Below, piece after piece: positions 13,660 to 64,000 of a stretch of 64,000 nt of DNA; positions within the stretch are counted from its first letter, which is position 1, and every line of letters starts with the position of its first letter. Source of the DNA: Minisyncoccota bacterium (GTDB taxonomy: Bacteria > Patescibacteriota > Minisyncoccia > Phycocordibacterales > SBAW01). The translations under genes were made by a program, and so were the position numbers. Below the pieces are notes generated by a model, which was not told the DNA's origin, made no database searches, and saw nothing but the letters and a program-made list of their open reading frames with translations. The stretch covers positions 115,741 to 179,740 of the forward strand of contig DASZSF010000005.1 of the NCBI GenBank assembly GCA_035548815.1. The letters run 5' to 3'.

Positions 13660-13692
13660 CTCTCATCCTCTTATCCACAGAGTGTTGTGTAT

Positions 13693-13713: not shown

Positions 13714-13732
13714 AACGTGATATAGTTAGTGT

Positions 13733-14413: not shown

Positions 14414-14444
14414 TTAATTATTAAGTTTGGTATACTAGAGGCAT

Positions 14445-14645: not shown

Positions 14646-14654
14646 CCCCTTTTC

Positions 14655-15344
14655 GTGGTGCGAAAATTTTTCCATTTCAGCGTACTCATCATATTGTTTG
14701 CGGTACTCTGTGCTACCGCAATAGTGGGGTACATTGATGTCACGAGCGAAAAATATATCTATTTATCAAAAAAAGCGCCACCTGCCGAGGTGGCGCTTGT
14801 GCTTGGCGCGTCAGTGACGTCCCGCGGCGTGCTTTCACCGATTTTAAAAGAGCGTGCCGATATGGCGGCTGCGCTGTATCAAAGCGGTACCGTACGAAAG
14901 ATATTGGTGACGGGCGATAACGGCACGCTCACATATGACGAAGTGTACCCGGTGGGCAAATATTTGCTGGCGCTTGGCATCCCGCAGGACGACATATTTT
15001 TAGACTACGCGGGATTTGATACGTACAGCAGTATGTACCGGGCCCGCGACGTGTTCGGCGTTACGTCGGTGCTCATTGTTACGCAAAAATTCCATCTTTC
15101 GCGGGCAGTCTTCATCGCGCGCTCCCTAGGCTTAGAAGCGTATGGCGTGGATGCGGCGGCCCCGGGTGAACGCTTTTTCACCTTGTCGCTGCGCGAAATC
15201 CCCGCTTCGCTTAAGGCTTCATACGATGTGTGGTTCGGCCGCGTGCCTAAGTATCTGGGCGAGCAGTTTCCCGTATCCGGGAGCGGGGTACCTACCTGGG
15301 TTGGCGGCAGCTCACAGATGATATACTTCGGACATGGCCGATGA
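14655..15344 (+). CDS. SanA/YdcF (DUF218) family membrane protein
   Basis: N-terminal TM; KILVTGDNGTLTYDEVYPVGKYLLALGIPQDDIFLDYAGFDTYSSM; LIVTQKFHLSRA. Confidence 0.7.
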   Translation: MVRKFFHFSVLIILFAVLCATAIVGYIDVTSEKYIYLSKKAPPAEVALVLGASVTSRGVLSPILKERADMAAALYQSGTVRKILVTGDNGTLTYDEVYPVGKYLLALGIPQDDIFLDYAGFDTYSSMYRARDVFGVTSVLIVTQKFHLSRAVFIARSLGLEAYGVDAAAPGERFFTLSLREIPASLKASYDVWFGRVPKYLGEQFPVSGSGVPTWVGGSSQMIYFGHGR

Positions 15345-15714
15345 GTGGAAGGAGAAGCTCACACCCCTGCAGTATCGCGTGCTTCGTGAGCGCGGGACCG
15401 AGGCTCCTTTTTCCGGCGAGCTGTTGCACGAAACGCGTGACGGCATGTACCGATGCGCAGCGTGCGGCAACGCTCTGTTCGCCTCTGACGCCAAATTCGA
15501 TTCAGGCACCGGGTGGCCATCGTTTGACCAAGCATTGCCTGGATCGACAAAAATTGTTCCGGACGACAGCCATGGCATGCAGCGCGACGAAGTCGTATGC
15601 GCGCATTGCGGTTCGCATCTAGGACATGTGTTTGCCGATGGTCCGTCGACCACGGGAGAACGTTACTGCATCAATTCAGTATGCTTGGCGCTTGACCCGA
15701 AGGAAAGTAGGTAA
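15334..15714 (+). CDS. msrB: peptide-methionine (R)-S-oxide reductase MsrB
   Basis: CxxC...CxxC zinc motif (CAACGN ... CAHCGSHLGHVF), GTGWPSF, catalytic RYCINS; start overlaps preceding gene. Confidence 0.9.
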   Translation: MADEWKEKLTPLQYRVLRERGTEAPFSGELLHETRDGMYRCAACGNALFASDAKFDSGTGWPSFDQALPGSTKIVPDDSHGMQRDEVVCAHCGSHLGHVFADGPSTTGERYCINSVCLALDPKESR

Positions 15715-15735
15715 TTTACGAGTAACTACATATTT

Positions 15736-16032
15736 ATGTCTACAGTATCGAAATGGATTATTGGGATTTTGTGCCTCGCCGCGCTTGGCTGGCTCGTATG
15801 GTGGAGCGGCTGGTTGAAGAAGCCCGCAACGCAAACTGCGACCGATACAACAACGCAGGCAACAACCACGGCAGAGAATAACGCGCCTATTAACGGCATG
15901 AGTGCCAACAATGACGCGTCTGACACTGCTATTGCACAGGACACTGCGGCAATAGATGCACAGCTCAAGGCGTACTCAACCGACTCGTCAGACGTCGATT
16001 CGAGCATGAATGATAAGCAGGTAACCCAGTAA
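15736..16032 (+). CDS. hypothetical membrane-anchored Thr/Ala-rich protein
   Basis: N-terminal TM; low complexity. Confidence 0.4.
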   Translation: MSTVSKWIIGILCLAALGWLVWWSGWLKKPATQTATDTTTQATTTAENNAPINGMSANNDASDTAIAQDTAAIDAQLKAYSTDSSDVDSSMNDKQVTQ

Positions 16033-16040
16033 TACATCCC

Positions 16041-16880
16041 ATGACTACTATGCAAAAAATAGCCGTACTTCTTTTGACAGTGTTCGGATTCAGTATGGCC
16101 CTTGCTCCGGCCTTCGTATCTGCGCAAACAGGCGCTGCAGCGGATGCAAGTGTAAACGTTACGACGACAGGTGCATCTGCAGGCGTGGGCGTCCAGATGA
16201 GCGCAAAAGCTATGGCAGATGCAAAGACACGCGCCGACAAAGAACTCGACCGCCGCGTCCAGGCGCTAACCTCACTTAATGCGCGTGTACAGGCAATGCA
16301 GAAAGTAACTGACACGTTCAAGACGAGCTTGGCAACCAATATCGATACGCAGATCTCGGCATTTCAGGCACTTAAAACGAAAATTGATGGTGAAACTGAC
16401 GGCACAACTATTAAAGCCGACGTGCAGTCCATCACTGACTCATACCGAGTATACGCGCTCGTGCTTCCGCAAATTCGTATTGCTGCAGCAGCAGACCGTG
16501 AAGTGACCATTTCGTTCATGATGCAAACCTTGGGCAACAAGCTCGCAGCGCGCATCCAAGCTGCAAGTAATGCGGGCGGTGATGTGAAAGCTCTCACCGA
16601 TACCTTGAACGATTTTGCAACGCAGATCTCAACCGCATCTACGAAAGCACAGGCTGCAGTTGAAGTAAGCGCGCCGCTTGCTCCGGACAATGGCGATAAA
16701 GACACCATGGCTAAGAACAAAGCCGCGCTTGCCGAGGCACGCACCGACCTGAATGCGTCTCACACAGCGTTGGTTGCCGGGCGTAAAGACATCGACACCA
16801 TAGTAAAGGCTCTCGTTAAAGTTGAGGCAGCGGTTCGGGCATCCGCAACGGCTTCGAGCACGACAACGGTAGGTCAGTAA
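16041..16880 (+). CDS. hypothetical secreted Ala-rich coiled-coil protein
   Basis: signal peptide MTTMQKIAVLLLTVFGFSMALAPAFVSAQ. Confidence 0.45.
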   Translation: MTTMQKIAVLLLTVFGFSMALAPAFVSAQTGAAADASVNVTTTGASAGVGVQMSAKAMADAKTRADKELDRRVQALTSLNARVQAMQKVTDTFKTSLATNIDTQISAFQALKTKIDGETDGTTIKADVQSITDSYRVYALVLPQIRIAAAADREVTISFMMQTLGNKLAARIQAASNAGGDVKALTDTLNDFATQISTASTKAQAAVEVSAPLAPDNGDKDTMAKNKAALAEARTDLNASHTALVAGRKDIDTIVKALVKVEAAVRASATASSTTTVGQ

Positions 16881-16884
16881 TCGT

Positions 16885-18021
16885 ATGCGGCGATTACTCG
16901 CCATACTTTGCACAGGCGCACTGACATTGTCCGGTGCGTCTGTTGCGTATGCGCAAGCGAATATCGATCCAAGCGACATTGTTACATTCCCAAAAGCACA
17001 AGTCCTACGGGTTTTACATCAAGAGGTGCGTGAAATTCCAGGTACAGGCACTAACACAAATGCCCAGACCATAGAGGCACAGATACTCTCGGGTCCCGAG
17101 ACAGGCAAAGTCGTCACGATAGATAATGACTTTCTGACGCTTAACAAAGGCGATGTATTTTACATGCGACATGAAGTATACGATGCGGAAAGCATTAACA
17201 CGTACGCAGTGCTCGCGCCGTACCGCCTTCCGCAATTGGCATTGATAGTTGGGCTTTTCTTGCTGTGCCTGTTTGTGTTTGGGGGCAAGCAGGGCATACG
17301 CGGCCTTGTAACGCTTGTTGGCAGTCTTTTGTGTATCGGAGTCGTGCTTGTGCCTGGCATCTTGCACGGATTCTCGCCGCTTTTGCTGAGTGCGTGCGTG
17401 GCGGGGCTTATTGTCGTTCTCGGATCGTATATAACCCATGGCTTCAATAGGACAACTACCGCCGCAGTGGTTGGCATGCTATGCACGGTGCTCATTACCG
17501 GATTGCTCGCGTACATGTTCATTCATGCGGCGCGATTGACTGGTTTCTCGAATGAAGAGGCGACGTATTTAAACTTCAACACCGGAGGTTTGATAGATTT
17601 CCAGGGATTATTGCTCGGTGCCATGATAATCGGATTTTTGGGAGTGCTCTATGACGCAGCGATAAGTCAGGCGATTGCCGTCGAAGAGCTGTTTGCGGTA
17701 GGGAAACATCTTCAAAAATGGGATGTATACCGTCGCGCACAGCGCATAGGTCGCGAACATATCGGCGCATTGGTTAATACGCTTGCCATAGCCTATGTAG
17801 CAGTCTCGATGCCTCTACTTCTTCTAGTTGCCTCATCCGCTCAAAATGTCTGGATGACGCTCAACCAGGAACTATTTGCAGAAGAGATAGTCCGCATGAT
17901 GGTGGGTACGATAGGTATTATTCTTGCAGTGCCCATAACGACCGTGGTCGCAGTATATATACGTTCCACCTGGCCACCATCCAAGTTGCCGCGTCATGTG
18001 CACGGCCATTCGCATTCATAA
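16885..18021 (+). CDS. YibE/F-family multi-TM membrane protein
   Basis: signal + large extracytoplasmic domain then 8 TM with LLGAMIIGFLGVLYDAAISQAIAVEEL. Confidence 0.65.
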   Translation: MRRLLAILCTGALTLSGASVAYAQANIDPSDIVTFPKAQVLRVLHQEVREIPGTGTNTNAQTIEAQILSGPETGKVVTIDNDFLTLNKGDVFYMRHEVYDAESINTYAVLAPYRLPQLALIVGLFLLCLFVFGGKQGIRGLVTLVGSLLCIGVVLVPGILHGFSPLLLSACVAGLIVVLGSYITHGFNRTTTAAVVGMLCTVLITGLLAYMFIHAARLTGFSNEEATYLNFNTGGLIDFQGLLLGAMIIGFLGVLYDAAISQAIAVEELFAVGKHLQKWDVYRRAQRIGREHIGALVNTLAIAYVAVSMPLLLLVASSAQNVWMTLNQELFAEEIVRMMVGTIGIILAVPITTVVAVYIRSTWPPSKLPRHVHGHSHS

Positions 18022-18027
18022 AATAAA

Positions 18028-18048
18028 ACCCTCCGCAAAAGCGGAGGG
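18028..18048 (-). terminator. hairpin terminator (T-tract on minus strand)
   Basis: CCCTCCGC-AAAA-GCGGAGGG; revcomp followed by TTTTATTTTA. Confidence 0.55.
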
Positions 18049-18067
18049 GTAGCGGGTTACACGTTGG

Positions 18068-18496
18068 TCAGCAGTCGATATTGATCTGCCAGCGAACCTG
18101 GTCCTCGACGCTCACCTGCACATCCTCCTTGTCAGGGGAAGCGAGGATGCGGCAGCAGTTGGCGAAGCCGAGCGCCATACCGGCCTCGGCGACCATCAGC
18201 GGCCGGGCCGCATCGGTGCCCAGCAACCGGGCGACCTGCTTGCCCACGACCGAGTCGGGGTTGATGTCGACCATGACGCCGCGGCCGCGGCGCTCATGGC
18301 GGAGCACATCATGCCGGTGTTCCGGGGGCAACGCGTTCCTCACCGTGCAGCAGGGGCAGTCGGTCGACGCAGTCGCCGCGGCAGCTGCCATGATGGCCGC
18401 ATAGCCAAGCTTGGTGTCGGTGCGCATCGCATAGGCGAGCGCCGTGTCCGGCGTATCGCCGGCTTTCAGTCGAAGAAGTGCGCTTGGAAAGGACAT
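18068..18496 (-). CDS. hypothetical Cys-rich protein, high-GC foreign-looking gene, downstream of cooC-like ATPase
   Basis: about 63% GC; AGGGAG RBS 6 nt before ATG 18496; motifs DCPCC, FANCC, C-terminal C. Confidence 0.5.
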   Translation of the reverse strand: MSFPSALLRLKAGDTPDTALAYAMRTDTKLGYAAIMAAAAATASTDCPCCTVRNALPPEHRHDVLRHERRGRGVMVDINPDSVVGKQVARLLGTDAARPLMVAEAGMALGFANCCRILASPDKEDVQVSVEDQVRWQINIDC

Positions 18497-18582
18497 GAAC
18501 ATCTCCCTCTGGAGCTTCCGTTTGTTGGCGAACCTGCCAACGTGCCCTCCGCCATATATTTCGGAGGGCACGTTGACAACCT

Positions 18583-19254
18583 CTATATCGCTGCCTCTAT
18601 GTCGCGGGCGGCTTTCGCGGTATCTGCTTCAAGTCCCAATTCTTTATTTTCAACAAGTATGTGCTTGATGCCGGCAAGCTCTAGTTCGTGGCGTATCTGC
18701 TCGGCAACCCGGCGGCTGTTAACGGTCGGTTCGCGAACGATAACTGCCAAGTCCACGCCTGCCAGAATGCCGGTTGCGACAGGATCGGTGCCCGCGCGTT
18801 CGTCTACTATCACAGCTTCGTTTGATTTGAGCTTTAAGAGAGGCAAGTACACCTTGAGCGGCGCAGCCAGCGAATGACTGCATGCCTCTTGGCTGCGAAC
18901 GCGCTGTGTATGAGGCCCGGCGGTCATAATACGTAGACCGCTGTCCACTTCGACAGATATTTGTGCAGTATATGAGTCCGCAGGGAATATGCTGAACAAG
19001 ATGCCGGCTTCGGTGCCTGTGCGCAATGCATCAGCGTACGTTCCTTCGCGCAGAGCGCCAACATGTTCTTTTATTGCATCCGGATCACGGCCTATATACA
19101 CCGAAGGCTCGATTCCGAGACTGTATGTAAGGTCCATATTATGGTCGGCGTCTATCGCAAGAACGCGCATGCCTAGCCCCTGCAAATGCCGCACCATAGC
19201 TGTTGCCATCGTACTTTTGCCCGATCCTCCTTTTCCCAAAAATGCCAATTTCAT
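18583..19254 (-). CDS. CooC/MinD-like P-loop ATPase (CO-dehydrogenase nickel-insertion accessory family)
   Basis: deviant Walker A LGKGGSGKST, AIDADHNMDL, MinD/ParA fold length. Confidence 0.75.
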   Translation of the reverse strand: MKLAFLGKGGSGKSTMATAMVRHLQGLGMRVLAIDADHNMDLTYSLGIEPSVYIGRDPDAIKEHVGALREGTYADALRTGTEAGILFSIFPADSYTAQISVEVDSGLRIMTAGPHTQRVRSQEACSHSLAAPLKVYLPLLKLKSNEAVIVDERAGTDPVATGILAGVDLAVIVREPTVNSRRVAEQIRHELELAGIKHILVENKELGLEADTAKAARDIEAAI

Positions 19255-45255: not shown

Positions 45256-45580
45256 TCCTCCTATCCCACCTCAAGACCCTTAAGAGCCTCCTTGTTGGCA
45301 AACCCCCTTCGCAAATCCCTGGGGTCTGCTAGGGTGCAAAGCGATAGCATAAAGTGCTATCATGTTCGTGCACAACTAAATATAAGCCGACCTAACCCCT
45401 CAGGCCTCAAAACCTCAGGATATGGTCGCAAATCCCGCTAGAGATCAAAGGACTCCTGGTCAGAGTCACTCTAGCGGGTCGTATCGGGAAACCGGTACGG
45501 GCTCGGCCGAAAGGTCGGGTCGCGATGGCCAGGAGCCTTTTGATTAGGGCTCACTCCGTCGATAAAACCCGCTAGAATTC

Positions 45581-46516
45581 ATGGAAGAAATCGCCCCCAA
45601 GAAAAAGGGTAACGTTCTCAAATGGATAGGTATCGTGTTAGGCGTTTTGGTACTTCTCGCCATTATCAGCGCAGCTGGTTCCAGTTCCTCGTCTTCGGGC
45701 GGAAGTGCTACTGTGCCGTCCGATACGGGGATTTGTGGTACTAATCCGCAGGCGCTAAAAAAAGAAGCGTTTGTTCCAAATTATAAACAGCTCGCAAAGG
45801 ATCCGAGCGTATCTCAAGGCACCGTTGCCACGTTCACCGGTCAGATAGTGCAGATTGAGCAAAGCGGCAATGAAGGCATCATGCGTCTTTCCGTCACGAA
45901 AGAATCGTACGGTTGGAGTCTTAGCGATATCGTGTACGTAACGTATCATCAGGCGACGAATGCCGTCGACGGTGACGTTGTCTCCGTTACGGGGAAATTA
46001 ACCGGAAGCCAAACATATACGTCGCAGGCAAACTTTCAGATCACTATACCGAGCATTGATGTTTGCACCGTCGATACAAAACCGGTCGTATCAGCTCAAA
46101 CGACAACTCCCAAATCAAAGACGACCACACCGACTCCAAACACTTCTTCAAATCAGTCGAGCCAGCAAACTTACACTACTCCGAGTGGCGCGACAGTGAA
46201 CAATAGCGGTAATGTCGTCACGCCGCCGCCTGCGCCTCCGGCATCGTGGCACACGGTACAGACTTTCAGCGGCCAGACGCAAAAGAACACCGCTCCATTT
46301 ACCATTCAAGGGTCGCAGTGGCGAATTAGCTGGCAAGAAACGGGCGATGGTTACTTTGGTGCCAACGCGCAGAGTCCCGATGGAAGCAACTATTGCTCCA
46401 TCGCCAATCTGGTCGGTTCCGGCTCCGACTCTACGTACTGCTATGGCTCTGGGACGTATTACGTCTCGGTCAATACCGCAAATTCTTGGACGATCACCGT
46501 CGAAGACTACTACTAG
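45581..46516 (+). CDS. hypothetical membrane-anchored Thr/Pro-rich protein
   Basis: TM after Lys-rich N-terminus; low-complexity linker. Confidence 0.45.
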   Translation: MEEIAPKKKGNVLKWIGIVLGVLVLLAIISAAGSSSSSSGGSATVPSDTGICGTNPQALKKEAFVPNYKQLAKDPSVSQGTVATFTGQIVQIEQSGNEGIMRLSVTKESYGWSLSDIVYVTYHQATNAVDGDVVSVTGKLTGSQTYTSQANFQITIPSIDVCTVDTKPVVSAQTTTPKSKTTTPTPNTSSNQSSQQTYTTPSGATVNNSGNVVTPPPAPPASWHTVQTFSGQTQKNTAPFTIQGSQWRISWQETGDGYFGANAQSPDGSNYCSIANLVGSGSDSTYCYGSGTYYVSVNTANSWTITVEDYY

Positions 46517-53767: not shown

Positions 53768-56700
53768 TTGCAACAGGGCAATCGCGATCGCGATATGCCT
53801 TTTTCTTTTTTACAACCAACAAAAAACACTGTCCCGCATGCGGGACGTTCTTTGTTGTACAAGGGAATAATTCTTGTACTCATGTGCGCACTCACATGTT
53901 CGTCTTTTTCAATTCCTGCACGTGCAGCGGGCGCTCCTCCGACGATTATTTCGTACCAAGGCCGTCTCACCGATGGAAGTGGAAATTTACTTGGAGATTT
54001 GGGCACAACGTACTATCTGAAATTTTCTATTTGGGATAGTCCGACCGTGGGTGCGGGTAATCGTGTGTGGCCAACGACAACAAGCGTTGCAACGACGAGC
54101 GTTACGGTGACGCAAGGCCTCTTCACCGTTAACATTGGCGACACTGCGAACGGATATCCAACTGCGCTTAACTTGAACGTCGCAAACAATACGCAGCTCT
54201 ATTTGCAGGTGGAAGTTTCTGCGGATAACAATTCGTCTGAAACGTTGTCTCCACGCCAGCAACTCACATCGTCCGTATTCTCGCTCCTTTCGAGTGCAGT
54301 TGTCGGTACAACGACACCGTCGCTCTTTGGAACCACAACCCCGATAGGTTCATCGTTCATCACAGCGCAAGCAACAAGCGCGACGTCCATCCCACTGACA
54401 CTTGCAGGCACTTCAGGACAGACAGCGAATCTTTTCCAAGTTTTGAATAATTCTCTTTCGAACTTGTTTTCGATATCCAGCAACGGTACTGTCACCTTTG
54501 CGACGCTGACGTCAGGTTTGCATGCAGCATCACCAAGCGGTGCTGTGTACTCTGCGGCGACATCATCGCTTTCACTGTCGGGACCGTTCTCCGGGTTTGC
54601 ATCGCTCGGCGCACTTGTCGGCGGTTCGAACTCAACGATAACGTGGACCGGCCTTGCAACGACATCACAACCATCATCAAGCAACCTGCTTGTTTCAAAC
54701 GGAGGAGCGGGTGTGTACGGCGTCGCAACATCGACGCTCACTGCGTCGTCGCCACTCACTGGATCATTCACTGTGCTGGGAAGCGGCGGAAGTTTGGGAT
54801 GCCAAACTGCAAACGGTTCGCAAGCAGGATGTCTTTCGTCGGCAGACTGGACGACATTCAACAGCAAATCGAGTTTTGCATACCCGTTCAACATTGCCGG
54901 AAATGCAACCTCAACACTGACACAGTTCAACGGGGGACTTACTGCGTACGCGTCAACAACCATCGGCAACGGCGGCCAAGGCAGTGGCTTGACCATCAAC
55001 GGAGGCGCGACGACAACAGGAAATGCATACGTGAACGGGAACCTTACGGTGGGCACTACGGGAGCACTCGTTGCAAGTGCAGGTAATATAGTTCATCAAG
55101 TTGGTAACTTCCAATTCTACAATTCTACCATTGTCGTTCCAAGCGGTGCCTCTATTATTCCAAGCAACAACATCAGAACGTTTACGTTCTATGGGAACCC
55201 AACCTATTCAACCGGCAACGGTCTGGATTTTACGGCAGGGGACCCGGGTAATGCAGTGACTGTAAGCGCTTCGACAAACTATGGTTCGCCCGATATGAAT
55301 GTATCCATCGCGTTCCTCCCTAAAGGTGCGGGCAACATCGGTATTGCTACCTCCTCGCCCTTCGCCAAACTTTCGGTCGCGGGTTCAGCATACATCGGAG
55401 GCAATCTGACCGCGACGGGCACTCTCGCGGTTGCTGGCATCAGCACGTTTTCGAGCAATATCGGCGTGGGCACGACCTCACCGTGGAAGATGTTGTCAGT
55501 GGGCACGGGCACCACCGGCACTTTCGTCATTGCAACCTCAACCGCAGGCTGCGCACAGTTCAGTGCTTTTGGTGAACTCTACTCGACGGGTTCAAACTGT
55601 GGTGGAGGATCGCTTACAGGTACCACCGGTCAGATTCCGTGGTTCAGCGGCACGAACACCGCAGTGGGCACATCATCGTTGTTCCTCAACTCGTCTACAG
55701 GGAACTTCGGCATTGGAACCACATCGCCGCTTGCGAAACTTGATGTTTTTGGCAACGTAACCTTGTCTGGCTCAAGTCGCTATTTGAACTTCGGCGCGAC
55801 CTCGACCGCCGGTATTGGTTCAACTGGCTATGGTCTTCGTGATAATGCCGGTGTCCTTGAGTTCAAGAACTCCGGTGGTTCATGGCAAGGTGTGTCATCG
55901 GTTGCAACAAGCGGACCGGCCTTCTCCGTGGATAAAAATGGCACTGACCAAACAATTTCAACAGCCACATATACACCTCTCACTTGGTCTCACGAAATCT
56001 TCGACACCAACAACAACTTCGACACGGGGACCGGCCGATTCACTCCAACAGTGCCGGGCAAGTATCTCATTAAGCTCAATGTGTACTGTGGCGCAGTTTC
56101 TAGCTGCTACGCAGGTATCGCAAAAAACGGTTCTGCCCTGGCAAACATAGTTTCGCAGACAGGCTCCCAAGGGAACGTCACCATTGCGACGGCGGTCGCT
56201 ATCGTCGACATGAATGGTACGACGGACTACATCGTAGGCGACGGCTATTCGGATGTAAGCACAACTATTGTTGGTACGGTTATCAATACCAACTTCTCAG
56301 GTGCTCTCATTGCCCCCGTCAGCGCGGGTACGGTCAACGGCACAGGTTCAAATGGTCAGATCACCTTCTGGAACAGTGCAAACTCAGCAACAGGCGACGC
56401 CGACTTCGTCTGGGACAGCACCAACAGCCGCCTTGGCATCGGCACCTCATCGCCATGGGCAAAGCTTTCGGTTGTTACGGATGCAACTACTGGTCCAGGC
56501 AGTGTCGTCGATGCAAGTTCAATCACGGACGGAGTGGGTCTGCGCCTTGAGTTCAATAGCTCAACGATGACCACCAACGGCCGTGTCTTCAGCATTGTCG
56601 ACAAAGCTTTCAACAGCACCTTCTTCGAAGTCAACGAAAACGGTCAGACCGGCATCCGCACCTTCGGCAACCTCGGTAGCAACTTCTCATCACTCACGGT

Positions 56701-58828
56701 TGCAACGGGCTTCGACAGCTTCACGGGCATCTCAGTGCGCGCCAACAGCGGTTCGCAGACTGGCAACTTGCAAGAATGGCAGGATTCGTCAGGCAATCCG
56801 CTGGTGGTTGTGGACCCGACGGGAAAGGTTGGCGTCGGTACCTCAACTCCTCACTGGAACCTCCAAGTCGCCGGCACGCGTCCGTCATTCGCGCTCTCAG
56901 ACACATCGGCAGGCACAAACTTGAAACACTGGGTCTTCTCATCGATGGGCGGCAACCTCTACATCGGTACCTCAACCGATGCGTTCGGCACGTCGAGCCC
57001 TGCAGTCTTCTCAATCTCAAGCACGGGTTCAACGACTGCAGCAAACGGCATCAACATCAACAACGGCTGCTTTGCTATCAAAGGTGCGTGTATCGGCTAC
57101 ACGGTGAAGCTTGCAGCTGTATATGCGACTTCGACTGCGGGTACGAATGCAACAGTCCAGTTCACCGGCGCACCAGGCAGTGCTCCGAGCTTTGCTACAG
57201 GGGCGCCGGGCACGCTCACCCTTCCATCCAACACCTCATATATTGTTGTTGAAACCCGCGGTGGTGGTGGCGGTGGTGGTAACAACGGTAGCACGAGCGC
57301 AATCAAAGCAGCCGGCGGCGGCGGCCAAGGTGGATACTCGCGCGCACTTATCAAAGCGCCTACCGGCACCTACAAGTACACCGTTGGCTTGGGCGGCGCT
57401 GGCGGTACAGGTACCGGAGCAGTAACAGGCACCGCAGGCGGCGCAAGCTGCTTTGGCACTAACGCAACCGCATGTACGTCGTCTTCAGTGCAAGCAGCGG
57501 GCGGTTCAGGAGGCGTTGGAACTAACTCTGCAGGAGCAATTTCAGGGGGCGCTGGCGGTTCGTCGGCAGCGGTAGGTACTGTCGGTGATTACGAAGAAGA
57601 CGGTGCTCCCGGAGGTGACAGCAGTGCAGCAACAAACGGTATCCAAAGCGGTGCCGGAGGCGGCCAAGGCGGAGGTCTCGGACGCACTACTTCAGGCAAT
57701 GGTAACCCTGGTATAAACGGCGGCGGCGGCTCAGGCGGCTTGCTTACAGCAGCAGCTGCTACACAAGAAACCGGCGGCAAGGGCGGCGACGGCGTCCTTA
57801 TCATATCCGTCTACGCAACGTCGTCTGCAAACGCAACAGGCAACGACTATGCTGAAATGTTCCCAGTTTCCGACTCGTCAATTTCTTCAGGCGACATCGT
57901 CGCAGTCGACAACACGACTCCAGTTTCGATGCGCATGGCACGAGGAGGCGAGCATGCGTCGCTTGCAGGCATCGTCTCAACTGCACCAGGCCAGATCCTT
58001 GGCGATGCGTCAGCACCAGGTCAAAAACCGATCGCGTTCTCTGGTCGCGTTCCGACCAAGGTCAACCTGGAGAACGGTCCTATTCATGTCGGTGACCGCA
58101 TCGCGCCGTCATTCGTTGCTGGGGTTGGTAAGAAGGCGGGTCCTCTGGATGACTCGGTCGGTATCGCGCTTGAAGCATACGATGGCACATCTGATTCCAA
58201 TCAGATATTGGTATTCCTCGATCTTCACCAAGGTATTGATATAAGCTCGCTTGCAGGACAGCTCTTCTCGTCCGAAGTGCTTCAGAATATATCAAGCTCT
58301 CTCCCTATTGATTCGACATCAACTTCTGCATCGATGCTCATGGGTACGACTAGCCCTGAAACAGGCACGGACTTTGTTGGCGCCATCTTTGGCGCCATCA
58401 TCGCTCGCATGCAAAACTTCGGGATCTTTATTACAAAAACGGCAACCCACATCACGACCCTTATGGTGAGTCACTTTACGGTCGGCTCGTCTGATGCGCC
58501 TGAAGGGATCACCATTTACGACAGACAAGGCCGCGCAGGGTGTCTTATTGCTGATGATGTAACAACAGGCAAGATGCAATTGCTTGAAGGCATGTGCGGT
58601 ACACAAACCGCGAGCGTAGGAAATGCTACATTGCAAGATGGCGGAGGAAATGACAACGATACTGGCACCAGCACGCCTGCTGTGGAGCCTATTGGCCAAA
58701 ACAGCAGCGACACCGCTACGAGCACGTCTTCTGATATAGGCGCTGGAAGCGACGAGCCTGCGACACCAGACACTCCAAGCGACACGGGCAACTCTGACAT
58801 GGCATCATCAACTGACACCGGAGTCTAG
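53768..58828 (+). CDS. giant (1686 aa) secreted surface protein with Thr/Ser/Gly-rich beta-repeats and phage tail-fibre-like glycine-rich domain
   Basis: signal peptide; YIVVETRGGGGGGGNNG...AAGGGGQGG...GLGGAGGTG glycine-rich segment; conserved C-terminal globular domain. Confidence 0.75.
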   Translation: MQQGNRDRDMPFSFLQPTKNTVPHAGRSLLYKGIILVLMCALTCSSFSIPARAAGAPPTIISYQGRLTDGSGNLLGDLGTTYYLKFSIWDSPTVGAGNRVWPTTTSVATTSVTVTQGLFTVNIGDTANGYPTALNLNVANNTQLYLQVEVSADNNSSETLSPRQQLTSSVFSLLSSAVVGTTTPSLFGTTTPIGSSFITAQATSATSIPLTLAGTSGQTANLFQVLNNSLSNLFSISSNGTVTFATLTSGLHAASPSGAVYSAATSSLSLSGPFSGFASLGALVGGSNSTITWTGLATTSQPSSSNLLVSNGGAGVYGVATSTLTASSPLTGSFTVLGSGGSLGCQTANGSQAGCLSSADWTTFNSKSSFAYPFNIAGNATSTLTQFNGGLTAYASTTIGNGGQGSGLTINGGATTTGNAYVNGNLTVGTTGALVASAGNIVHQVGNFQFYNSTIVVPSGASIIPSNNIRTFTFYGNPTYSTGNGLDFTAGDPGNAVTVSASTNYGSPDMNVSIAFLPKGAGNIGIATSSPFAKLSVAGSAYIGGNLTATGTLAVAGISTFSSNIGVGTTSPWKMLSVGTGTTGTFVIATSTAGCAQFSAFGELYSTGSNCGGGSLTGTTGQIPWFSGTNTAVGTSSLFLNSSTGNFGIGTTSPLAKLDVFGNVTLSGSSRYLNFGATSTAGIGSTGYGLRDNAGVLEFKNSGGSWQGVSSVATSGPAFSVDKNGTDQTISTATYTPLTWSHEIFDTNNNFDTGTGRFTPTVPGKYLIKLNVYCGAVSSCYAGIAKNGSALANIVSQTGSQGNVTIATAVAIVDMNGTTDYIVGDGYSDVSTTIVGTVINTNFSGALIAPVSAGTVNGTGSNGQITFWNSANSATGDADFVWDSTNSRLGIGTSSPWAKLSVVTDATTGPGSVVDASSITDGVGLRLEFNSSTMTTNGRVFSIVDKAFNSTFFEVNENGQTGIRTFGNLGSNFSSLTVATGFDSFTGISVRANSGSQTGNLQEWQDSSGNPLVVVDPTGKVGVGTSTPHWNLQVAGTRPSFALSDTSAGTNLKHWVFSSMGGNLYIGTSTDAFGTSSPAVFSISSTGSTTAANGININNGCFAIKGACIGYTVKLAAVYATSTAGTNATVQFTGAPGSAPSFATGAPGTLTLPSNTSYIVVETRGGGGGGGNNGSTSAIKAAGGGGQGGYSRALIKAPTGTYKYTVGLGGAGGTGTGAVTGTAGGASCFGTNATACTSSSVQAAGGSGGVGTNSAGAISGGAGGSSAAVGTVGDYEEDGAPGGDSSAATNGIQSGAGGGQGGGLGRTTSGNGNPGINGGGGSGGLLTAAAATQETGGKGGDGVLIISVYATSSANATGNDYAEMFPVSDSSISSGDIVAVDNTTPVSMRMARGGEHASLAGIVSTAPGQILGDASAPGQKPIAFSGRVPTKVNLENGPIHVGDRIAPSFVAGVGKKAGPLDDSVGIALEAYDGTSDSNQILVFLDLHQGIDISSLAGQLFSSEVLQNISSSLPIDSTSTSASMLMGTTSPETGTDFVGAIFGAIIARMQNFGIFITKTATHITTLMVSHFTVGSSDAPEGITIYDRQGRAGCLIADDVTTGKMQLLEGMCGTQTASVGNATLQDGGGNDNDTGTSTPAVEPIGQNSSDTATSTSSDIGAGSDEPATPDTPSDTGNSDMASSTDTGV

Positions 58829-59815
58829 TTACATGTTTTGGTATGCGAGCGATGATAGATCCTCGATAATTGAAAGAAGGGACTCAAAATTTGAACCTTG
58901 AGTCATGACGCAGATGATATATGGGTTCGGGTCTTTGTATACGATGCCACAGTCATGAAGTTCGCGGATTGGTCCTGCCGACGATATGGTTTCGCGTTCG
59001 CCAAATTTGTGAGATACGATCACATCTTGCGGCAGCAACGCAGCAAGTCCTTTAAAGGAAGAGCTGCTCATAAGCGAAAGTACCGCCTGCGATGAGTCGC
59101 GATTAAGGTACGAAGCATTATAAAGTATGCGCAGTATACCTGCATACGTCTTGGCGGTCATGTAGTCGACCGTATTTTGGTTGACAGGCAGCGTAATGCC
59201 AAGGTCGACGATTGTTTGCTTGAAAATATCTGGATTTATTTGTGACTGTAAAAGAGTTGCTGCGGCATTGTCCGAGTCTACCATCATCCGCGTAAGAAGA
59301 TCAGATACGGTGTAGGTGCCAGGGCTCAGTGTTTCTGGCGCTGCAAAGTGCTCTATATATTGTGACTTTGCGCCATTGTATGAAAGTTTTGCCGAAAATA
59401 TCGACGGGTCGAGGCTGCGTATTTTGTAGTAGGTGATAAGCAGTGGCAGCTTCATCAGCGAGGCTGGCGTATAGGTTTCGTTTTCGTTACTTGCTGCCCA
59501 CTGCTGGCTTACAAGATCACGAATGAAGATTGAAATGCGTTTTGCTTTGCCTTCTTTTACATACAGATCAGTTGTGGAATCGAGCAATATGTCGAGCGAA
59601 CGCAGACGTTCCGTCGTATCGTCGAGCGTGACACAGCCGATACTGCGACTGATAAGAGGATATTGGTCATGACAGTTATCGCGCGCACGTTTTGCAACGA
59701 CATAGGCGCGCGTGCCGGTTACGACATAGATAAAAAAAAGCAGACCGGCGCCGGCGACAACACCAAGCACGACATAGCGCCAATGAGACTTAATACCACG
59801 TGAGAACTCCTTCAT
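58829..59815 (-). CDS. class A beta-lactamase-like serine hydrolase, membrane-anchored
   Basis: SxxK (ASLMK), SDN (VDSDNAAA), xxG triad (HKFG); N-terminal TM. Confidence 0.75.
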   Translation of the reverse strand: MKEFSRGIKSHWRYVVLGVVAGAGLLFFIYVVTGTRAYVVAKRARDNCHDQYPLISRSIGCVTLDDTTERLRSLDILLDSTTDLYVKEGKAKRISIFIRDLVSQQWAASNENETYTPASLMKLPLLITYYKIRSLDPSIFSAKLSYNGAKSQYIEHFAAPETLSPGTYTVSDLLTRMMVDSDNAAATLLQSQINPDIFKQTIVDLGITLPVNQNTVDYMTAKTYAGILRILYNASYLNRDSSQAVLSLMSSSSFKGLAALLPQDVIVSHKFGERETISSAGPIRELHDCGIVYKDPNPYIICVMTQGSNFESLLSIIEDLSSLAYQNM

Positions 59816-59843: not shown

Positions 59844-60890
59844 ATGTCGAGGTTGTTCTTTGCTCTATATATAGTGTTTGCGCTTGTTGCTACGTACACC
59901 GCGAGCGTCCCAGCATATGCGGATGTAACTTCAACGCACTATAGAATTGAAAATCCAACAATTAGTCCCGGCGGCACAGGTTCGTCAGCAAGCTACAAAC
60001 TTTCAGGCACGGCAGGCGAGACTGCGCACAATGGTGGGTCAGCTTCAAGTTATCGATTACAGCTCGGGTTCTTCTCGTTCCCGGTCGTAACAGCGCCGGT
60101 ACTATCGGTGCAGGTCGGAAATGCGAACGGCCGGGCGGATCTTTCGTGGAGCGCCGCCATTCCATATTTGGGATACACGGTTTCGGCGTATAAAGTCGGC
60201 TACGCAACCGCGTCGGGAGGACCCTACACATATATATCGGTAGGCAATGTGCTTGCGTACGATGTGGGGTCGCTGGTGAACGGTACGCCATACTACTTTA
60301 TTGTTACTGCGCTCGACAATGCGAGCATCACAATAGCGACCTCAAGCGAGGTGACCGCGACACCAGTGGCGCCGTCCCTTACATTTGTTATAGACTCAGG
60401 CACTCAAGCATTGCCAAACTTAACGCCAGGCACGCTCACGTCGACCTCGAGTATTTTGAGTATCAAAACGAATAACCCGACAGGCTTTGTCACGACCCTT
60501 GCACGTTCAAACGTAAATAACACGCTGTTATTAAACACGGATTCGAGCGTTGCGATACCCGACAAGACTGACTGGACTGCACCACCAGCCACGACGACAA
60601 ACGGCTCCGCATCGGCGTCAACAACCCAGCCTCTGACACTTCAATTCCGCCTATGGAAGGCTATGACCGATTCGGCAAACTATTCAACAAACTGGTGGGG
60701 AGCTGACGACACAACATCGGGTGCATTATTTGCGGGCATACCATCAACAACGCAAGCGATTTCGAATCGTTCAGTGTCAGCAGTGTCGACGACTACCACT
60801 CGTGTGTTGTATGACCTGAACGTTCCAAACAGCCAAAAGAACGGCACCTATAGCGGCGATGTTGTATATACCGTTACCGTCAATCCATGA
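59844..60890 (+). CDS. secreted protein: FN3-like domain + C-terminal WxL-like domain (paralogue 1)
   Basis: signal peptide; C-terminal TNWWGADD...LFAGI...GTYSGDVVYTVTVNP shared with next gene. Confidence 0.45.
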   Translation: MSRLFFALYIVFALVATYTASVPAYADVTSTHYRIENPTISPGGTGSSASYKLSGTAGETAHNGGSASSYRLQLGFFSFPVVTAPVLSVQVGNANGRADLSWSAAIPYLGYTVSAYKVGYATASGGPYTYISVGNVLAYDVGSLVNGTPYYFIVTALDNASITIATSSEVTATPVAPSLTFVIDSGTQALPNLTPGTLTSTSSILSIKTNNPTGFVTTLARSNVNNTLLLNTDSSVAIPDKTDWTAPPATTTNGSASASTTQPLTLQFRLWKAMTDSANYSTNWWGADDTTSGALFAGIPSTTQAISNRSVSAVSTTTTRVLYDLNVPNSQKNGTYSGDVVYTVTVNP

Positions 60891-60966
60891 TGACATATGG
60901 GGATAAGCAGAATGTGTGAAATAGCTTGTGATATATACTTAATAGGCGATTGAACGTAATGAAATT

Positions 60967-61671
60967 TTGATGAACCCCTTTTCGATTTCTTTTTCATATG
61001 TGCATCGAATTGATAGGACAGACTTTGCCAAGTCGTTTATAGCAACAGCGCTTCTTTTTGGCGTTTTCGTATTAGCCATTCAGGCGTACGCATCGACGGT
61101 AACCCTTTCAGTTGTAGTTCAAACCTCCCTTACCTTTACAAGTACGACCGACAACTTCACCACCATAACGCCAGGGACTCCCGTATACGCCACGACGACT
61201 CTTTCAGTGCTCACGAACGATTCAAGCGGTTATAACGTTACGCTTTCGGGCGACAATAAGAGCACGAGCAATAACAACTTGCAGCTATCGGGCAACACAT
61301 CGGTGCAGATCACCGACCAGACCGAATGGGTACCGAACGCTGCCACATCAAGTCCGGGCAATGCCGTCGCTGTTGCTAGCTTCACGAACTCGGGCAATGT
61401 ACTTGCATTCCGAGTCATGAGCGCTTCGTCGACAAATGGTGCGGGCTTCCTTTCGACGTCATGGTGGGGAACGGCCGACTACTCTTCCTCAAACTCGCTG
61501 TGGGCAGGTATTTCAAGCTCAACTGTAGCTCGTCGTATTGGCAATGCGGGCTCAGGCACGTATAGTTCATCTGCGCATTTAAACAGCGTTCAATACTACT
61601 TGAATGTCTCAAGCAGCCAACAGACCGGTACCTACAACGCACCTATTACCTATACCGCCACAGGCAATTAA
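60967..61671 (+). CDS. secreted WxL-like domain protein (paralogue 2)
   Basis: STSWWGTAD...LWAGI...GTYNAPITYTATGN; signal peptide. Confidence 0.45.
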   Translation: MMNPFSISFSYVHRIDRTDFAKSFIATALLFGVFVLAIQAYASTVTLSVVVQTSLTFTSTTDNFTTITPGTPVYATTTLSVLTNDSSGYNVTLSGDNKSTSNNNLQLSGNTSVQITDQTEWVPNAATSSPGNAVAVASFTNSGNVLAFRVMSASSTNGAGFLSTSWWGTADYSSSNSLWAGISSSTVARRIGNAGSGTYSSSAHLNSVQYYLNVSSSQQTGTYNAPITYTATGN

Positions 61672-61675
61672 CGCT

Positions 61676-62587
61676 ATGGTACTGCGGCGACTGGCATATA
61701 TAACCGCTACAGGCGTCGCCCTCCTTCTATATGGATTTTCATTTGTGCCTGCGCTTGCAGCAACGGGCCTTTCTATACAACCGGTCAAGATAGATCAAAC
61801 ACTTAACCCAGGCGACGTGCTCGATGGCAGCATTTTGCTTTCCAATGCAAGCGATGGTCCGGTAAATGTTGAACTGAGCCTACAGGATTTCGTGCCCACA
61901 GCGGGAGCTGATGGTATTCAGTTCATCGGCCGCACGGAGGGAGTGACGAGTGTCATCGATTGGATCCATGTCGAGACCAAACCAACGTTCTCTCTGGATG
62001 TCGGCGAACAGATTAGCATCCCGTACACCATTACAGCGCCTCAAAATGCTGAACCAGGTAGCCACTTGGGAGTTATTTTGTTCAAAGCTGCACCAAAAAA
62101 CGCTGTGGCAGGCAGTCTTAAGGTTGGTACGCAGGTTGGAACGCTTGTAATGATCGCAATTCCGGGCAACCACCTTGAAAAAGGAAATATACTCGACTTT
62201 ACAGTGCCTCTATTTTCTCAAAAAGGGCCGATCCCATTTGATATAAAATTCCAAAACACCGGCACCGTCCATTTCGAGCCGAAAGGATCGATTGTCATCC
62301 GCAATATGTTTGGGCAGAAGGCTGGCGAAGTGCCCATTACTGGTCAAGTTGCACTTCCAACGAGCGTAAAAGAACTTAAATTCGCATGGAATCCGGGAGC
62401 GTTTGCGCTTGGGCGTTACACTGCGAGCGCAACTATCTACGACGGCGAAGGAGATGCGCTTACGTCCCGTGAAGTGAGTTTCTACGTAGTTCCTGTGTGG
62501 TATATCATCGGATTCCTCGTAGTAATTACATTGATCTACCTCCTCTTGCGCTACCTCAAACGACACGTACGTCTGACCTTGCAATAG
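61676..62587 (+). CDS. DUF916/DUF3324-like cell-surface protein with C-terminal TM anchor (CscA-like)
   Basis: GLSIQPVKIDQTLNPGDVLDGSILLSNASDGPVNVELSLQDF; C-terminal VWYIIGFLVVITLIYLLLRYLKRH. Confidence 0.55.
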   Translation: MVLRRLAYITATGVALLLYGFSFVPALAATGLSIQPVKIDQTLNPGDVLDGSILLSNASDGPVNVELSLQDFVPTAGADGIQFIGRTEGVTSVIDWIHVETKPTFSLDVGEQISIPYTITAPQNAEPGSHLGVILFKAAPKNAVAGSLKVGTQVGTLVMIAIPGNHLEKGNILDFTVPLFSQKGPIPFDIKFQNTGTVHFEPKGSIVIRNMFGQKAGEVPITGQVALPTSVKELKFAWNPGAFALGRYTASATIYDGEGDALTSREVSFYVVPVWYIIGFLVVITLIYLLLRYLKRHVRLTLQ

Positions 62588-62593
62588 ACTGCC

Positions 62594-63181
62594 ATGAATG
62601 GCCCACGCCTTGGCACAGCAATTCTTATTGGTCTGGCATTATGCCTCATGGCATATGGATTTCGCATCATTACAGCGACGGGCACTGTTGATGTTCGGCA
62701 TCTATTGTCGGCCACCGATATGCTGGTGGTATATGTATCTAACCCAAGCTGTGAAGCAAATGCAGGAACCGTGTGCCAGTCAGATCAAAACATGTGTGGG
62801 CAGATCAATTCAGGAATCTTTTTGTGCGACGGGACATGCTCGGCAGTGACTCCGCCTGATTCGCAGTGTCCGGTTGAACCTCCACCAAACACTGGAGGTG
62901 GCGGAGGCGGGGGTGGCGGAGGCCCGATAGTTGCCGTCACACCTCCTACGCCTACTCCTATGACGCCCGAAGATGAAACAGCGCTTCGGTGCACTGAGCG
63001 AAGAAAAATCGGCGACTTTAACTGCAGCGGCAGGGTAGACATACAGGACTTCAGCATCCTTGCATATTGGTTTAAACGACCGCTTACAGACCTGGCATAT
63101 GCGACGGGGGTGGACTTAAATCATGACCAAAAAGCGACTCTCGCGGATTTCAGCATCCTCGCATATTATTGGGGGAAATAG
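62594..63181 (+). CDS. secreted Cys-rich protein with poly-Gly linker and two dockerin-type Ca-binding repeats
   Basis: DFNCSGRVDIQDFSILAYWF and DLNHDQKATLADFSILAYYW match type-I dockerin repeat pattern. Confidence 0.6.
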   Translation: MNGPRLGTAILIGLALCLMAYGFRIITATGTVDVRHLLSATDMLVVYVSNPSCEANAGTVCQSDQNMCGQINSGIFLCDGTCSAVTPPDSQCPVEPPPNTGGGGGGGGGGPIVAVTPPTPTPMTPEDETALRCTERRKIGDFNCSGRVDIQDFSILAYWFKRPLTDLAYATGVDLNHDQKATLADFSILAYYWGK

Positions 63182-63184: not shown

Positions 63185-63736
63185 ATGAAGATATACAGCA
63201 TTTTTGCCACCGTTGCGCTATTCATTCCCGCCGTTGCGTCTGCGGCGACGCTTTCGTTTGATCCGCCTCATGCGCATGTGAAAGCAGGGGACGCTATTTC
63301 GTTTAGCGTTATGTTGAGCGCAGACGACAGTATTAATGCTGTAGGAACTGCGGTGCAGGTCCCTGCGGGACTCTCATTTATTTCCTCTTCCAAGGGAAAT
63401 GTATTTACGCAATGGGTAGAAACTCCCAGTTTTGATGCGAAGACGAGCACTGTTGAATTTTCGGGGATAATGACAGGAGGTTGGACAGGCAAAGACCAAG
63501 TGCTCGCAACTATTACCCTGAAGGCACAGCAGGATGGGGACTATACGCTTGTGTATGACCCTTCGCAGACAGAATTGTATAAGAACGATGGAAAGGCGAC
63601 TCCGGATACGGTGACGTTCGGCACTATAGCGACACCCCTTGCGGGCCGTGTACTTCTTGGCTTGGTCGCTGCGTTCGCCGCCGTACTCTTGTTCTTCTTA
63701 CTGCTGCGACGAAAAGTAATGGTACGATTTGTCTAA
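63185..63736 (+). CDS. cohesin-like domain protein with C-terminal TM anchor
   Basis: ATLSFDPPHAHVKAGDAISFSVMLSADDSINAVGTAVQVPAGLSFIS beta-sandwich pattern; C-terminal TM + RRK. Confidence 0.55.
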   Translation: MKIYSIFATVALFIPAVASAATLSFDPPHAHVKAGDAISFSVMLSADDSINAVGTAVQVPAGLSFISSSKGNVFTQWVETPSFDAKTSTVEFSGIMTGGWTGKDQVLATITLKAQQDGDYTLVYDPSQTELYKNDGKATPDTVTFGTIATPLAGRVLLGLVAAFAAVLLFFLLLRRKVMVRFV

Positions 63737-64000
63737 TGCGATTTCTTCGGCATGCCTGTTTTTGTCTTGTGTTGCTGCTGGCACTGCCAGTTGCGGCACA
63801 CGCTGCAACGCTGACGTTTGGCGGCCCTGTTCAGGTGATGGTCGGCGACATGGTGAGCGTGCCGGTATTGCTTTCAACTTCCGGAAGTGAGAGCGCGAAT
63901 GCCGTCTCTGCAACCATTAGCTACTCGACCAACCTGCTGACACTCGTCTCTATTTCCAAAGCTCAAAGTATTATCACGCTGTGGGCTCAAGAGCCCACTA
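63736..64000 (+). CDS. second cohesin-like protein, 3'-truncated by window end
   Basis: ATG overlaps previous stop (TAATG); ATLTFGGPVQVMVGDMVSVPVLLSTSGSESANAVSATISYSTNLLTLVSIS. Confidence 0.45.
   Translation, partial: MRFLRHACFCLVLLLALPVAAHAATLTFGGPVQVMVGDMVSVPVLLSTSGSESANAVSATISYSTNLLTLVSISKAQSIITLWAQEPT

Follow-up and report, generated by a model that had tools for sequence, protein, structure and literature searches.

Organization of the locus

Three adjacent genes on the forward strand of a 64,000-nt stretch of DNA from a Minisyncoccota bacterium (contig DASZSF010000005.1; the whole stretch is called the window here) were analyzed as a candidate locus for the assembly of a cell-surface structure, and are referred to as open reading frames ORF1, ORF2, and ORF3. 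ORF1 (59844-60890) encodes 348 amino acids (aa). ORF2 starts at the ATG at 60970, one codon downstream of the listed TTG at 60967, and its 233-aa product read from this ATG is identical to the database protein P0001. ORF3, listed from 61604, starts at the ATG at 61676, and its 303-aa product is identical to P0121. The stop codon of ORF2 occupies 61669-61671 and the ATG of ORF3 follows 4 nt later; the initial annotation of this DNA had correctly placed a third gene close behind the second, but with a gap of 5 nt. Starting with ORF2, successive genes overlap or lie 3-6 nt apart, and they therefore probably form one operon; a scan for promoters and terminators gave nothing useful for it.

The identical proteins carry the locus tags VG984_01815, 01820, and 01825 in a metagenome-assembled genome of ‘Candidatus Paceibacterota bacterium’ (GCA_964570245.1), a lineage that falls within the phylum Minisyncoccota, that is, the Candidate Phyla Radiation (CPR) or Patescibacteria. 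Database relatives number 345 for ORF2, 299 for ORF3, and 45 for ORF1. Their named sources include Paceibacterota, Kaiserbacteria, Parcubacteria, Taylorbacteria, Sungbacteria, and Nomurabacteria, and all named relatives belong to CPR. The relatives of all three proteins are annotated as hypothetical, and those of ORF2 and ORF3 carry no Pfam domain.

ORF1-3 are likely to represent the core of a minimal donor-strand pilus or surface-fibre locus of the Pam type, comprising a tip or cargo protein, a polymerising subunit, and a membrane-anchored chaperone. For the CPR parasite Ca. Mycosynbacter amalyticus, structures of two Pam filaments have been solved by cryo-electron microscopy (cryo-EM), in which the C-terminal domain of each pilin takes up the linker strand of the next subunit by donor-strand exchange (bioRxiv 10.64898/2026.03.03.709456). 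According to the same preprint, the operon encodes the pilins PamA and PamB, a tip subunit PamT without the linker strand, two FimC/PapD-like chaperones, PamC and PamD, with two immunoglobulin-like (Ig) domains and a C-terminal transmembrane (TM) helix, and PamR, a membrane-anchored, RbmA-like terminator. A tail-fibre-like protein and ATP synthase genes lie in the neighbourhood, and homologues occur mainly in Saccharimonadia and Microgenomatia; the preprint text names neither Paceibacteria or Parcubacteria nor WxL or DUF916 (bioRxiv 10.64898/2026.03.03.709456). The likeness to Pam described below is based on the NCBIfam models NF058581 and NF058579 and the description in the preprint.

A shared pilin-like domain in ORF1 and ORF2

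The features of the two secreted subunits, all on the forward strand, are as follows.

59844-59921: ORF1 signal peptide, residues 1-26 (...VPAYA, followed by D), read from the sequence, with a helix at residues 2-20 in the AlphaFold2 (AF2) model
59922-60098: ORF1 N-terminal module, residues 27-85, conserved, with a repeated hairpin-like motif S-x-x-Y-x-L; predicted local distance difference test (pLDDT) below 50
60102-60353: ORF1 fibronectin type III (Fn3) domain, residues 87-170 (PDB 3mpc, E=1.4e-5; pLDDT above 90)
60366-60887: pilin-like domain at the C-terminus of ORF1, residues 175-348; a Pro-rich linker, TATPVAP, takes the place of a donor strand in front of it
60970-61671: ORF2, small subunit of 233 aa with signal peptide, N-terminal strand, and pilin-like domain; proposed polymerising shaft subunit
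61093-61122: ORF2 candidate donor strand, residues 42-51 (STVTLSVVVQ), at the mature N-terminus; role proposed by analogy with the Pam linker strand
61123-61668: ORF2 pilin-like domain, residues 52-233, reaching the C-terminus of the protein

Residues 175-347 of ORF1 align with residues 51-234 of ORF2 at 39% identity (E=4e-21), which defines a shared domain of about 180 aa and bears out the initial annotation, in which two adjacent secreted proteins were described as having a C-terminal domain in common. The motifs quoted there, WWG..D, L.AGI, and GTY.....YT.T.N[P], are also found in the two proteins, as NWWGADD and SWWGTAD, LFAGI and LWAGI, and GTYSGDVVYTVTVNP and GTYNAPITYTATGN, respectively. 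Against the NCBIfam model NF058581 (CPR_Pam_pilin_C), ORF2 scores 20.3 bits (E=4.5e-4; cutoff 55 bits) and covers profile positions 3-147 of 148, while 110 of 120 ORF2 relatives match the same model with a best E of 1.7e-8. The structural model of the domain gives matches to the pilin-like Ig fold of chaperone-usher systems.

The link to Pam extends to the large subunit. P0249 and P0257, which are orthologous to ORF1, show similarity to the NCBIfam PamT model over its N-terminal third (profile positions 7-92, E=2e-6), and ORF1 itself has no match to that model. P0277 and P0279 have the N-terminal module and the Fn3 domain of ORF1 in common (E=4e-18 and 2e-15), and with scores of 67.6 and 69.5 bits their C-terminal domains exceed the curated cutoff of NF058581, while P0263 and P0282 fall slightly below it. 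ORF1 is read as a PamT-like tip or cargo subunit that would accept a strand and be unable to donate one. Among P0265-P0281, the N-terminal module and Fn3 domain (window 59922-60353) are fused to dockerin C-termini instead of the pilin-like domain, so the same ORF1-type payload seems to be displayed through two attachment domains.

A profile search across 1.84 billion representative sequences (50% clustering) at a threshold of E<=1e-3 recovered 552 representative proteins with the pilin-like domain, with lengths from about 200 to 3569 aa. Among the best 148 of these, the 136 representatives whose match extends to the end of the profile all have the end of the domain 0-4 residues from the C-terminus. 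Since the family is this broad and the domain is always a C-terminal tag, it may serve as a general means of adhesin display in these cells. One protein among P0286-P0433 combines the domain with a beta-propeller (DUF5122), and other payloads occur as well.

The family divides according to what precedes the domain. In 58 small proteins (<=270 aa), an alternating strand lies directly after the signal peptide, for example TLTVTVNT, VTLSVQVQN, or ESLSVTVQA. In 78 large proteins, Ala/Gly-rich linkers stand immediately before the domain and replace the strand (...TTAAAA directly followed by SLTFVVS), and the ORF1 group has its Pro-rich linker at the place where ORF2 has the strand. Within the ORF2 family, the candidate donor strand is conserved at V44 (106 of 120 sequences), T45 (108), L46 (118), and V50 (115), and position 48 is V in 82 and A in 34 of the 120, giving an alternating pattern overall (VTLSVxV). 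This division follows the logic of chaperone-usher pili, where shaft subunits possess an N-terminal extension to donate and the tip adhesin joins a payload to an acceptor-only domain; it also agrees with the description of PamT as a subunit without the linker strand.

A membrane-anchored, WxLIP-like partner

The features of ORF3, again on the forward strand, are listed here.

61676-62587: ORF3, 303 aa, WxLIP-like and PapD-like; proposed assembly chaperone and anchor
61862-61963: ORF3 conserved beta-hairpin, residues 63-96 (...DFVPTAGADGIQFIGRTEGVTSVIDW); candidate strand-donating element
62495-62566: ORF3 C-terminal TM helix, residues 274-297, hydrophobic VWYIIGFLVVITLIYLLL, from the AF2 model and the sequence

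In the AF2 model of ORF3 (mean pLDDT 87.5), an N-terminal signal helix is followed by two Ig-like beta-sandwich domains, and residues 274-297 form a helix near the C-terminus, in agreement with the C-terminal membrane anchor first proposed for the third protein. Structural comparison had been suggested at that stage as a check; when the ORF3 model was searched with Foldseek against 350,542 PDB chains, the top three matches were WxLIP chains of E. faecium, with 263-264 columns aligned. These best matches belong to PDB entries 9i1y and 9i25, released on 2026-01-28, which contain E. faecium WxLIP alone or bound to a long WxL protein; no paper describing either entry was found in the literature searched. 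The next matches are the chaperones CfaA, Caf1M, FimC, SafB, CsuC, and PapD of chaperone-usher systems.

WxLIP proteins, with the architecture DUF916-DUF3324-TM, are encoded together with a small and a large WxL protein in the WxL clusters of Lactobacillales and Bacillales (PMC1534035, PMC10599100), and in a published prediction it is a hairpin of WxLIP that completes the WxL sandwich, which is otherwise incomplete (PMC10599100). Such completion amounts to strand complementation of the chaperone type, a term that is not used in PMC10599100. For comparison, loci carrying the WxLIP motif NQIDKxxxYFDLK were collected from Firmicutes, 68 in all, and these yielded 55 WxLIP sequences and 80 WxL domains. 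Alignment of family profiles with hhalign gave the following probabilities and E-values.

ORF3 family against full-length WxLIP, 240 columns: 97%, E=9.6e-11
ORF3 family against WxLIP after trimming of the signal peptide and TM helix, 202 columns: 82%, E=1.1e-5
ORF3 N-terminal domain alone against WxLIP: 88%, E=3.2e-6
ORF3 C-terminal domain alone against WxLIP: 4%, E about 0.01
Reversed control: 0.2%, E=0.34

Part of the initial score (E=1e-10) came from the signal peptide and TM helix, and the trimmed value is E=1e-5. The Pfam family PF06030 (WxLIP_PGBD, formerly DUF916) is weakly matched by 48 of 120 ORF3 relatives, with a best E of 5e-4, and no other family is matched comparably often. DUF3324 (PF11797) was not detected by sequence in the same 120 relatives. 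ORF3 thus appears to be a remote relative of WxLIP. The initial annotation had called it DUF916/DUF3324-like; the DUF916 half of that description holds as remote homology, and the DUF3324 half stands by fold and architecture alone.

The densest run of invariant or nearly invariant residues in ORF3 falls in the hairpin (D71, F72, P74, G77, F83, R86, G89, T91, V93, D95, and W96), where the pLDDT is locally lower, at 72-75. This segment aligns to a WxLIP segment inside PGBD/DUF916, the domain that contains the hairpin with the predicted role in completing WxL. The hairpin at residues 63-96 is the prime candidate for the strand by which ORF3 would complement its partners.

The fold matches also bring chaperone-usher pili into consideration. 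Systems such as the archaic Csu and class 5 CFA/I pili (CsuA/B, CsuC, CfaA, FimC/FimH) resemble the window locus in the PapD-like two-domain chaperone fold, the pilin-like Ig fold, the N-terminal extension on the polymerising subunit, the two-domain, acceptor-only tip, and the strictly conserved C-terminus of the subunits. The window system differs in having neither an outer membrane nor an usher, in its TM-tethered chaperone, and in the absence of similarity at the sequence level; the Pfam family PapD_N gave no signal in the 120 ORF3 relatives. Among the called genes flanking ORF1-3, no Pfam usher or sortase match was present, the rest of the window not having been scanned, and the called genes of related loci contain no usher match either. 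The subunits lack an LPXTG motif, a hydrophobic tail, or another sorting signal and end in ...YTATGN and ...YTVTVNP. With no usher or sortase match among these genes and no LPXTG, a canonical chaperone-usher or sortase-dependent pilus is rejected as extremely improbable, and the resemblance to chaperone-usher systems is likely to reflect only analogy or very deep homology.

Gene order and comparison with Pam loci

Related loci place ORF3-like proteins next to pilins. The P0279 locus (L072) encodes, in order, a 1211-aa giant protein, a small gene product, P0279, a second pilin, a 333-aa protein of the ORF3 family (E=1.5e-42 against the ORF3-family hidden Markov model, HMM), a dockerin-like protein, and two cohesin-like proteins with TM helices. 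This is the gene order of the window, in a locus whose pilin passes the Pam cutoff. A Nomurabacteria contig (L074) contains two consecutive pilins followed by an ORF3-family protein (E=6e-22), while L076 encodes a giant protein, a large and a small subunit, the chaperone, and dockerin-like and cohesin-like proteins, followed directly by the ATP synthase operon. In L076, positions 12633-18633 comprise a complete F-type ATP synthase operon, matching the neighbourhood given in the Pam preprint. The contig of the window itself has TPR, MurJ, and LepA genes downstream, not ATP synthase.

Hence, the neighbourhood is of the Pam type, with a giant protein upstream in the window, L072, and L076, ATP synthase in L076, and named relatives exclusively in CPR. 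A membrane-anchored PapD/FimC-like chaperone is likewise encoded in the operon, as seen from the AF2 model, the chaperone matches, and the L072 neighbour of pilins that pass the cutoff. Further points of agreement are the CPR host, Sec-exported subunits, a C-terminal domain that matches Pam_pilin_C when the whole family is considered, a candidate tip subunit that has a linker in place of the donor strand and whose orthologues resemble PamT N-terminally, a two-Ig chaperone with a C-terminal TM helix, the lack of usher and sortase matches among the flanking called genes, and a giant fibre-like neighbour. On the other side, the main subunit of the window locus has only one domain, with a candidate donor strand ahead of it, in contrast to the pilin arrangement of N-terminal domain, linker, and C-terminal domain; the locus has two subunit genes and one chaperone and is found in Paceibacteria; and dockerin-like and cohesin-like genes occupy the place where the RbmA-like PamR would be expected.

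Several observations weigh against assigning the locus to a Pam-type fibre. ORF2 reaches only 20 bits on the Pam pilin model, against the cutoff of 55, ORF1 has no match to NF058581, and no NCBIfam Pam chaperone model matches ORF3. The C-terminal domain is modelled with moderate confidence (pLDDT 56-86). The nine-strand N-terminal domain of PamA and PamB is missing from ORF2, and the paired cysteines reported for these pilins are absent from both ORF1 and ORF2. Moreover, the occurrence of the domain on proteins of up to 3569 aa is also compatible with a pure anchoring domain. Membership of the locus in the Pam family is rated as likely, slightly more so than the fibre model as a whole, and the formation of an extended filament is moderately favoured. 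The scores below the curated NCBIfam cutoffs explain why automatic annotation leaves the locus as ‘hypothetical’.

The genes behind ORF3 raise the further idea of a cellulosome-like scaffold, in which ORF1-3 would be accessory Ig-like proteins docked on the downstream cohesin-like membrane proteins, with no strand exchange. Dockerin-like and cohesin-like genes do follow ORF3 at distances of 3-6 nt, in an order kept in L072 and L076, and the N-terminal module and Fn3 domain of ORF1 are fused to dockerins in other CPR proteins. ORF1, ORF2, and ORF3 themselves, however, show no dockerin or cohesin signal; the dockerin and cohesin matches in the window are below the Pfam cutoffs; L078 has pilin and chaperone genes with no evident cohesin gene; and a scaffold of this kind would leave the similarities to Pam pilin, WxLIP, and chaperones unexplained. 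It is accordingly considered very improbable.

Relationship to WxL clusters

In the initial annotation, the shared domain was called WxL-like and the locus was compared with the cell-surface complex (Csc) clusters of Lactobacillales. The layout was recognised correctly: large and small secreted proteins with a common C-terminal domain are accompanied by a membrane-anchored two-Ig partner. The pairing of a small, domain-only protein and a large, payload-carrying protein beside the partner gene is kept in L076, L077, and L078. As in WxL clusters, the domain lies at the C-terminus of variable N-terminal payloads. The partner, too, shows the features known there: a signal peptide, a pair of Ig-like domains, of which the N-terminal one is remotely homologous to DUF916, and a TM helix.

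The order of motifs is also common to both groups, running from ‘s-L-T-F...F-G’ through GWx[LV] to a C-terminal ‘Y-x3-4-[LIV]-T-aromatic’. GWx[LV] occurs in 89 of 120 family members and, among WxL domains, in 52 of 80. At the terminal aromatic position, all 108 sequences of the family carry Y or F and never W, and all 48 WxL domains carry W; the initial annotation had noted Tyr in place of Trp there (ITYTAT in ORF2, VVYTVT in ORF1). The dual Trp-x-Leu motif is not present: ORF2 has GYNVTL and ITYTAT, ORF1 has GFVTTL and VVYTVT, and the family consensus at the first site is GWNV.

Profile searches on the single proteins, the check originally suggested, produced no match of ORF1-3 to WxL (PF13731), DUF916, or DUF3324 at E<=1. 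Judged by the refuting condition stated with that check, the idea would have fallen at this point, and it was the family-wide scans that gave the weak DUF916 signal. WxL is absent among the 25 most matched Pfam families for 120 ORF2 relatives (E<=10) and for 73 representatives (E<=1). In hhalign comparisons of the shared domain with WxL, using three profiles and the 80-sequence WxL alignment, probabilities of 0.5-16% (E=0.0016-0.11) were obtained, compared with 0.1-0.6% for controls. HMM searches in both directions gave nothing significant, a WxL HMM scoring the shared-domain sequences no better than reversed ones. PDB sequence searches with the single proteins and three profiles returned no WxLIP or WxL match and no Pam pilin, the PamA and PamB models apparently being absent from the PDB copy searched; the same search with an Enterococcus WxL protein returned nothing.

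Membership of ORF1 and ORF2 among ‘WxL-like’ proteins was thus rejected, because the hhalign and HMM tests, judged against reversed controls, are not significant. What remains of that description is a resemblance in motif order and genomic context; sequence comparison does not establish that the shared domain and WxL are homologous. The window locus further differs from WxL clusters in the lack of a Pfam WxL or DUF3324 signal, in its terminal Tyr or Phe instead of Trp, and in belonging to another phylum. WxL, moreover, is described as a peptidoglycan-binding platform and not as a pilin, unlike the system proposed here.

If the locus nevertheless worked as a static complex of the Csc/WxL type, the shared domain would be a non-covalent cell-wall anchor with no polymerisation, ORF1 would carry the adhesive payload, ORF2 would be a platform partner, and ORF3 would act as a stabiliser at the interface of membrane and peptidoglycan. 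Such a complex would account for the layout of large, small, and membrane-anchored two-Ig proteins known from WxL clusters (PMC10599100), for WxLIP as the nearest structure to ORF3, with the DUF916 matches in 48 of 120 relatives and the hhalign values of 82-97%, for a C-terminal tag that, like the domain of large WxL proteins, sits on very diverse proteins, the longest of 3569 aa, and for the motifs held in common (GWx[LV] in 89/120 against 52/80; Y...T[Y/F] against Y...TW). It is weakened by the absence of WxL from the Pfam families listed for the 193 relatives and representatives, by hhalign and HMM scores of the domain against WxL at or near control level, and by the lack of a DUF3324 sequence signal. 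The domain instead matches the C-terminal domain of Pam pilins, whose donor-strand filaments have been visualised by cryo-EM (bioRxiv 10.64898/2026.03.03.709456), and an N-terminal strand confined to small subunits would have no role in a static complex. This explanation is therefore judged unlikely, and the locus is better filed as a Pam-type pilus locus with a WxLIP-like chaperone than as a Csc cluster. The two models would converge, however, if WxL clusters themselves used strand complementation.

Proposed assembly and implications

For the Pam-type fibre, a pathway can be outlined in which assembly would proceed through strand complementation, with neither usher nor sortase. ORF1, ORF2, and ORF3 would be exported by Sec, and ORF3 would be kept in the membrane by its C-terminal helix. 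In a chaperone step, the hairpin of its first Ig-like domain would fill the open groove of newly exported pilin-like domains. ORF1, with its PamT-like N-terminal module and Fn3 payload and no strand to donate, would begin the fibre and could occupy the distal end only, as tip or cargo. ORF2 would then polymerise head-to-tail into the shaft, with residues 42-51 inserted into the preceding subunit, and the proximal subunit would remain capped by membrane-anchored ORF3 or by a downstream anchor, tethering the fibre to the cell. The paralogy of ORF1 and ORF2, the domain architecture, the links to the Pam pilin C-terminal domain and to WxLIP, the split between small and large proteins, and the conserved operon and synteny are observed; from these we infer that strands are exchanged, and likewise how the subunits are ordered, how long the polymer grows, and that it takes part in host or cell attachment.

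CPR bacteria rely on attachment to host cells, but most of the surface fibres of this group lack annotation. The locus would extend the Pam pilus, in a simpler form missed by curated models, to the class Paceibacteria. The relationship of ORF3 to WxLIP may, in addition, connect two surface systems hitherto described separately. In the literature searched, no link between WxL and donor-strand systems was found, except for one review naming both separately. A tentative proposal, to which we give somewhat less than an even chance, is that a single ancient monoderm system is represented by both the Pam pili of CPR and the Firmicutes WxL/Csc clusters; PamC and PamD would then correspond to WxLIP and complement the incomplete C-terminal beta-sandwich with a strand. 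If this is true, the window locus would be a minimal intermediate, with a single-domain donor-strand subunit and acceptor-only cargo proteins, and WxL proteins would be held, and perhaps polymerised, by donor-strand complementation and not by peptidoglycan binding alone. WxL clusters are important in virulence and in adhesion to the gut, and the link between ORF3 and WxLIP offers a testable strand-complementation hypothesis for the assembly of those of enterococci, listeriae, and lactobacilli.

Neighbouring genes

The genes surrounding ORF1-3 in the window are listed below.

53768-58828, forward strand: giant 1686-aa secreted fibre-like protein rich in Gly, Ser, and Thr; conserved upstream neighbour
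58829-59815, reverse strand: class A beta-lactamase-like gene (Beta-lactamase2, E=3.5e-29), between the giant gene and ORF1
62594-63181, forward strand: dockerin-like protein, 195 aa (Pfam Dockerin_1, E=0.004, below cutoff), after a 6-nt gap behind ORF3
63185-63736, forward strand: cohesin-like protein of 183 aa that has a membrane helix at its C-terminus (match to Pfam Cohesin below cutoff, E=0.0027)
63736-64000, forward strand: start of a second cohesin-like gene (weak Cohesin match), 315 aa in the source contig (L001 12061-13008), cut by the window end

The N-terminus of the giant protein is 39% identical to that of its 1211-aa counterpart in L072 (E=9e-19), and a 4892-aa protein with no detected sequence similarity to it occupies the same place in L076. 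Weak matches to C1q and Gly_rich_2 were obtained for the window protein, and a comparison with PHROGs gave no match. It may be the equivalent of the protein described as ‘tail fibre-like’ near the Pam genes.

Counterparts of the dockerin-like gene occupy the same position in L072 and L076 and lie further downstream in L077. The first cohesin-like gene has a counterpart at the same position in L076 and one further downstream in L077, and the second has counterparts in L072, L076, and L077. The products of these dockerin-like and cohesin-like genes may serve as anchors of the fibre, or they may make up a second system for display. The beta-lactamase-like gene is separated from the giant gene by 0 nt and from ORF1 by 28 nt, and a function in remodelling the cell wall for the fibre is a speculation. 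A similar beta-lactamase-like gene is found near the related locus L077.

Elsewhere in the window, a match to the Rfam LOOT RNA (RF03000) lies at 45389-45521 on the forward strand, just upstream of the open reading frame at 45581-46516, and covers the full model with 73.3 bits against a gathering threshold of 46.4.

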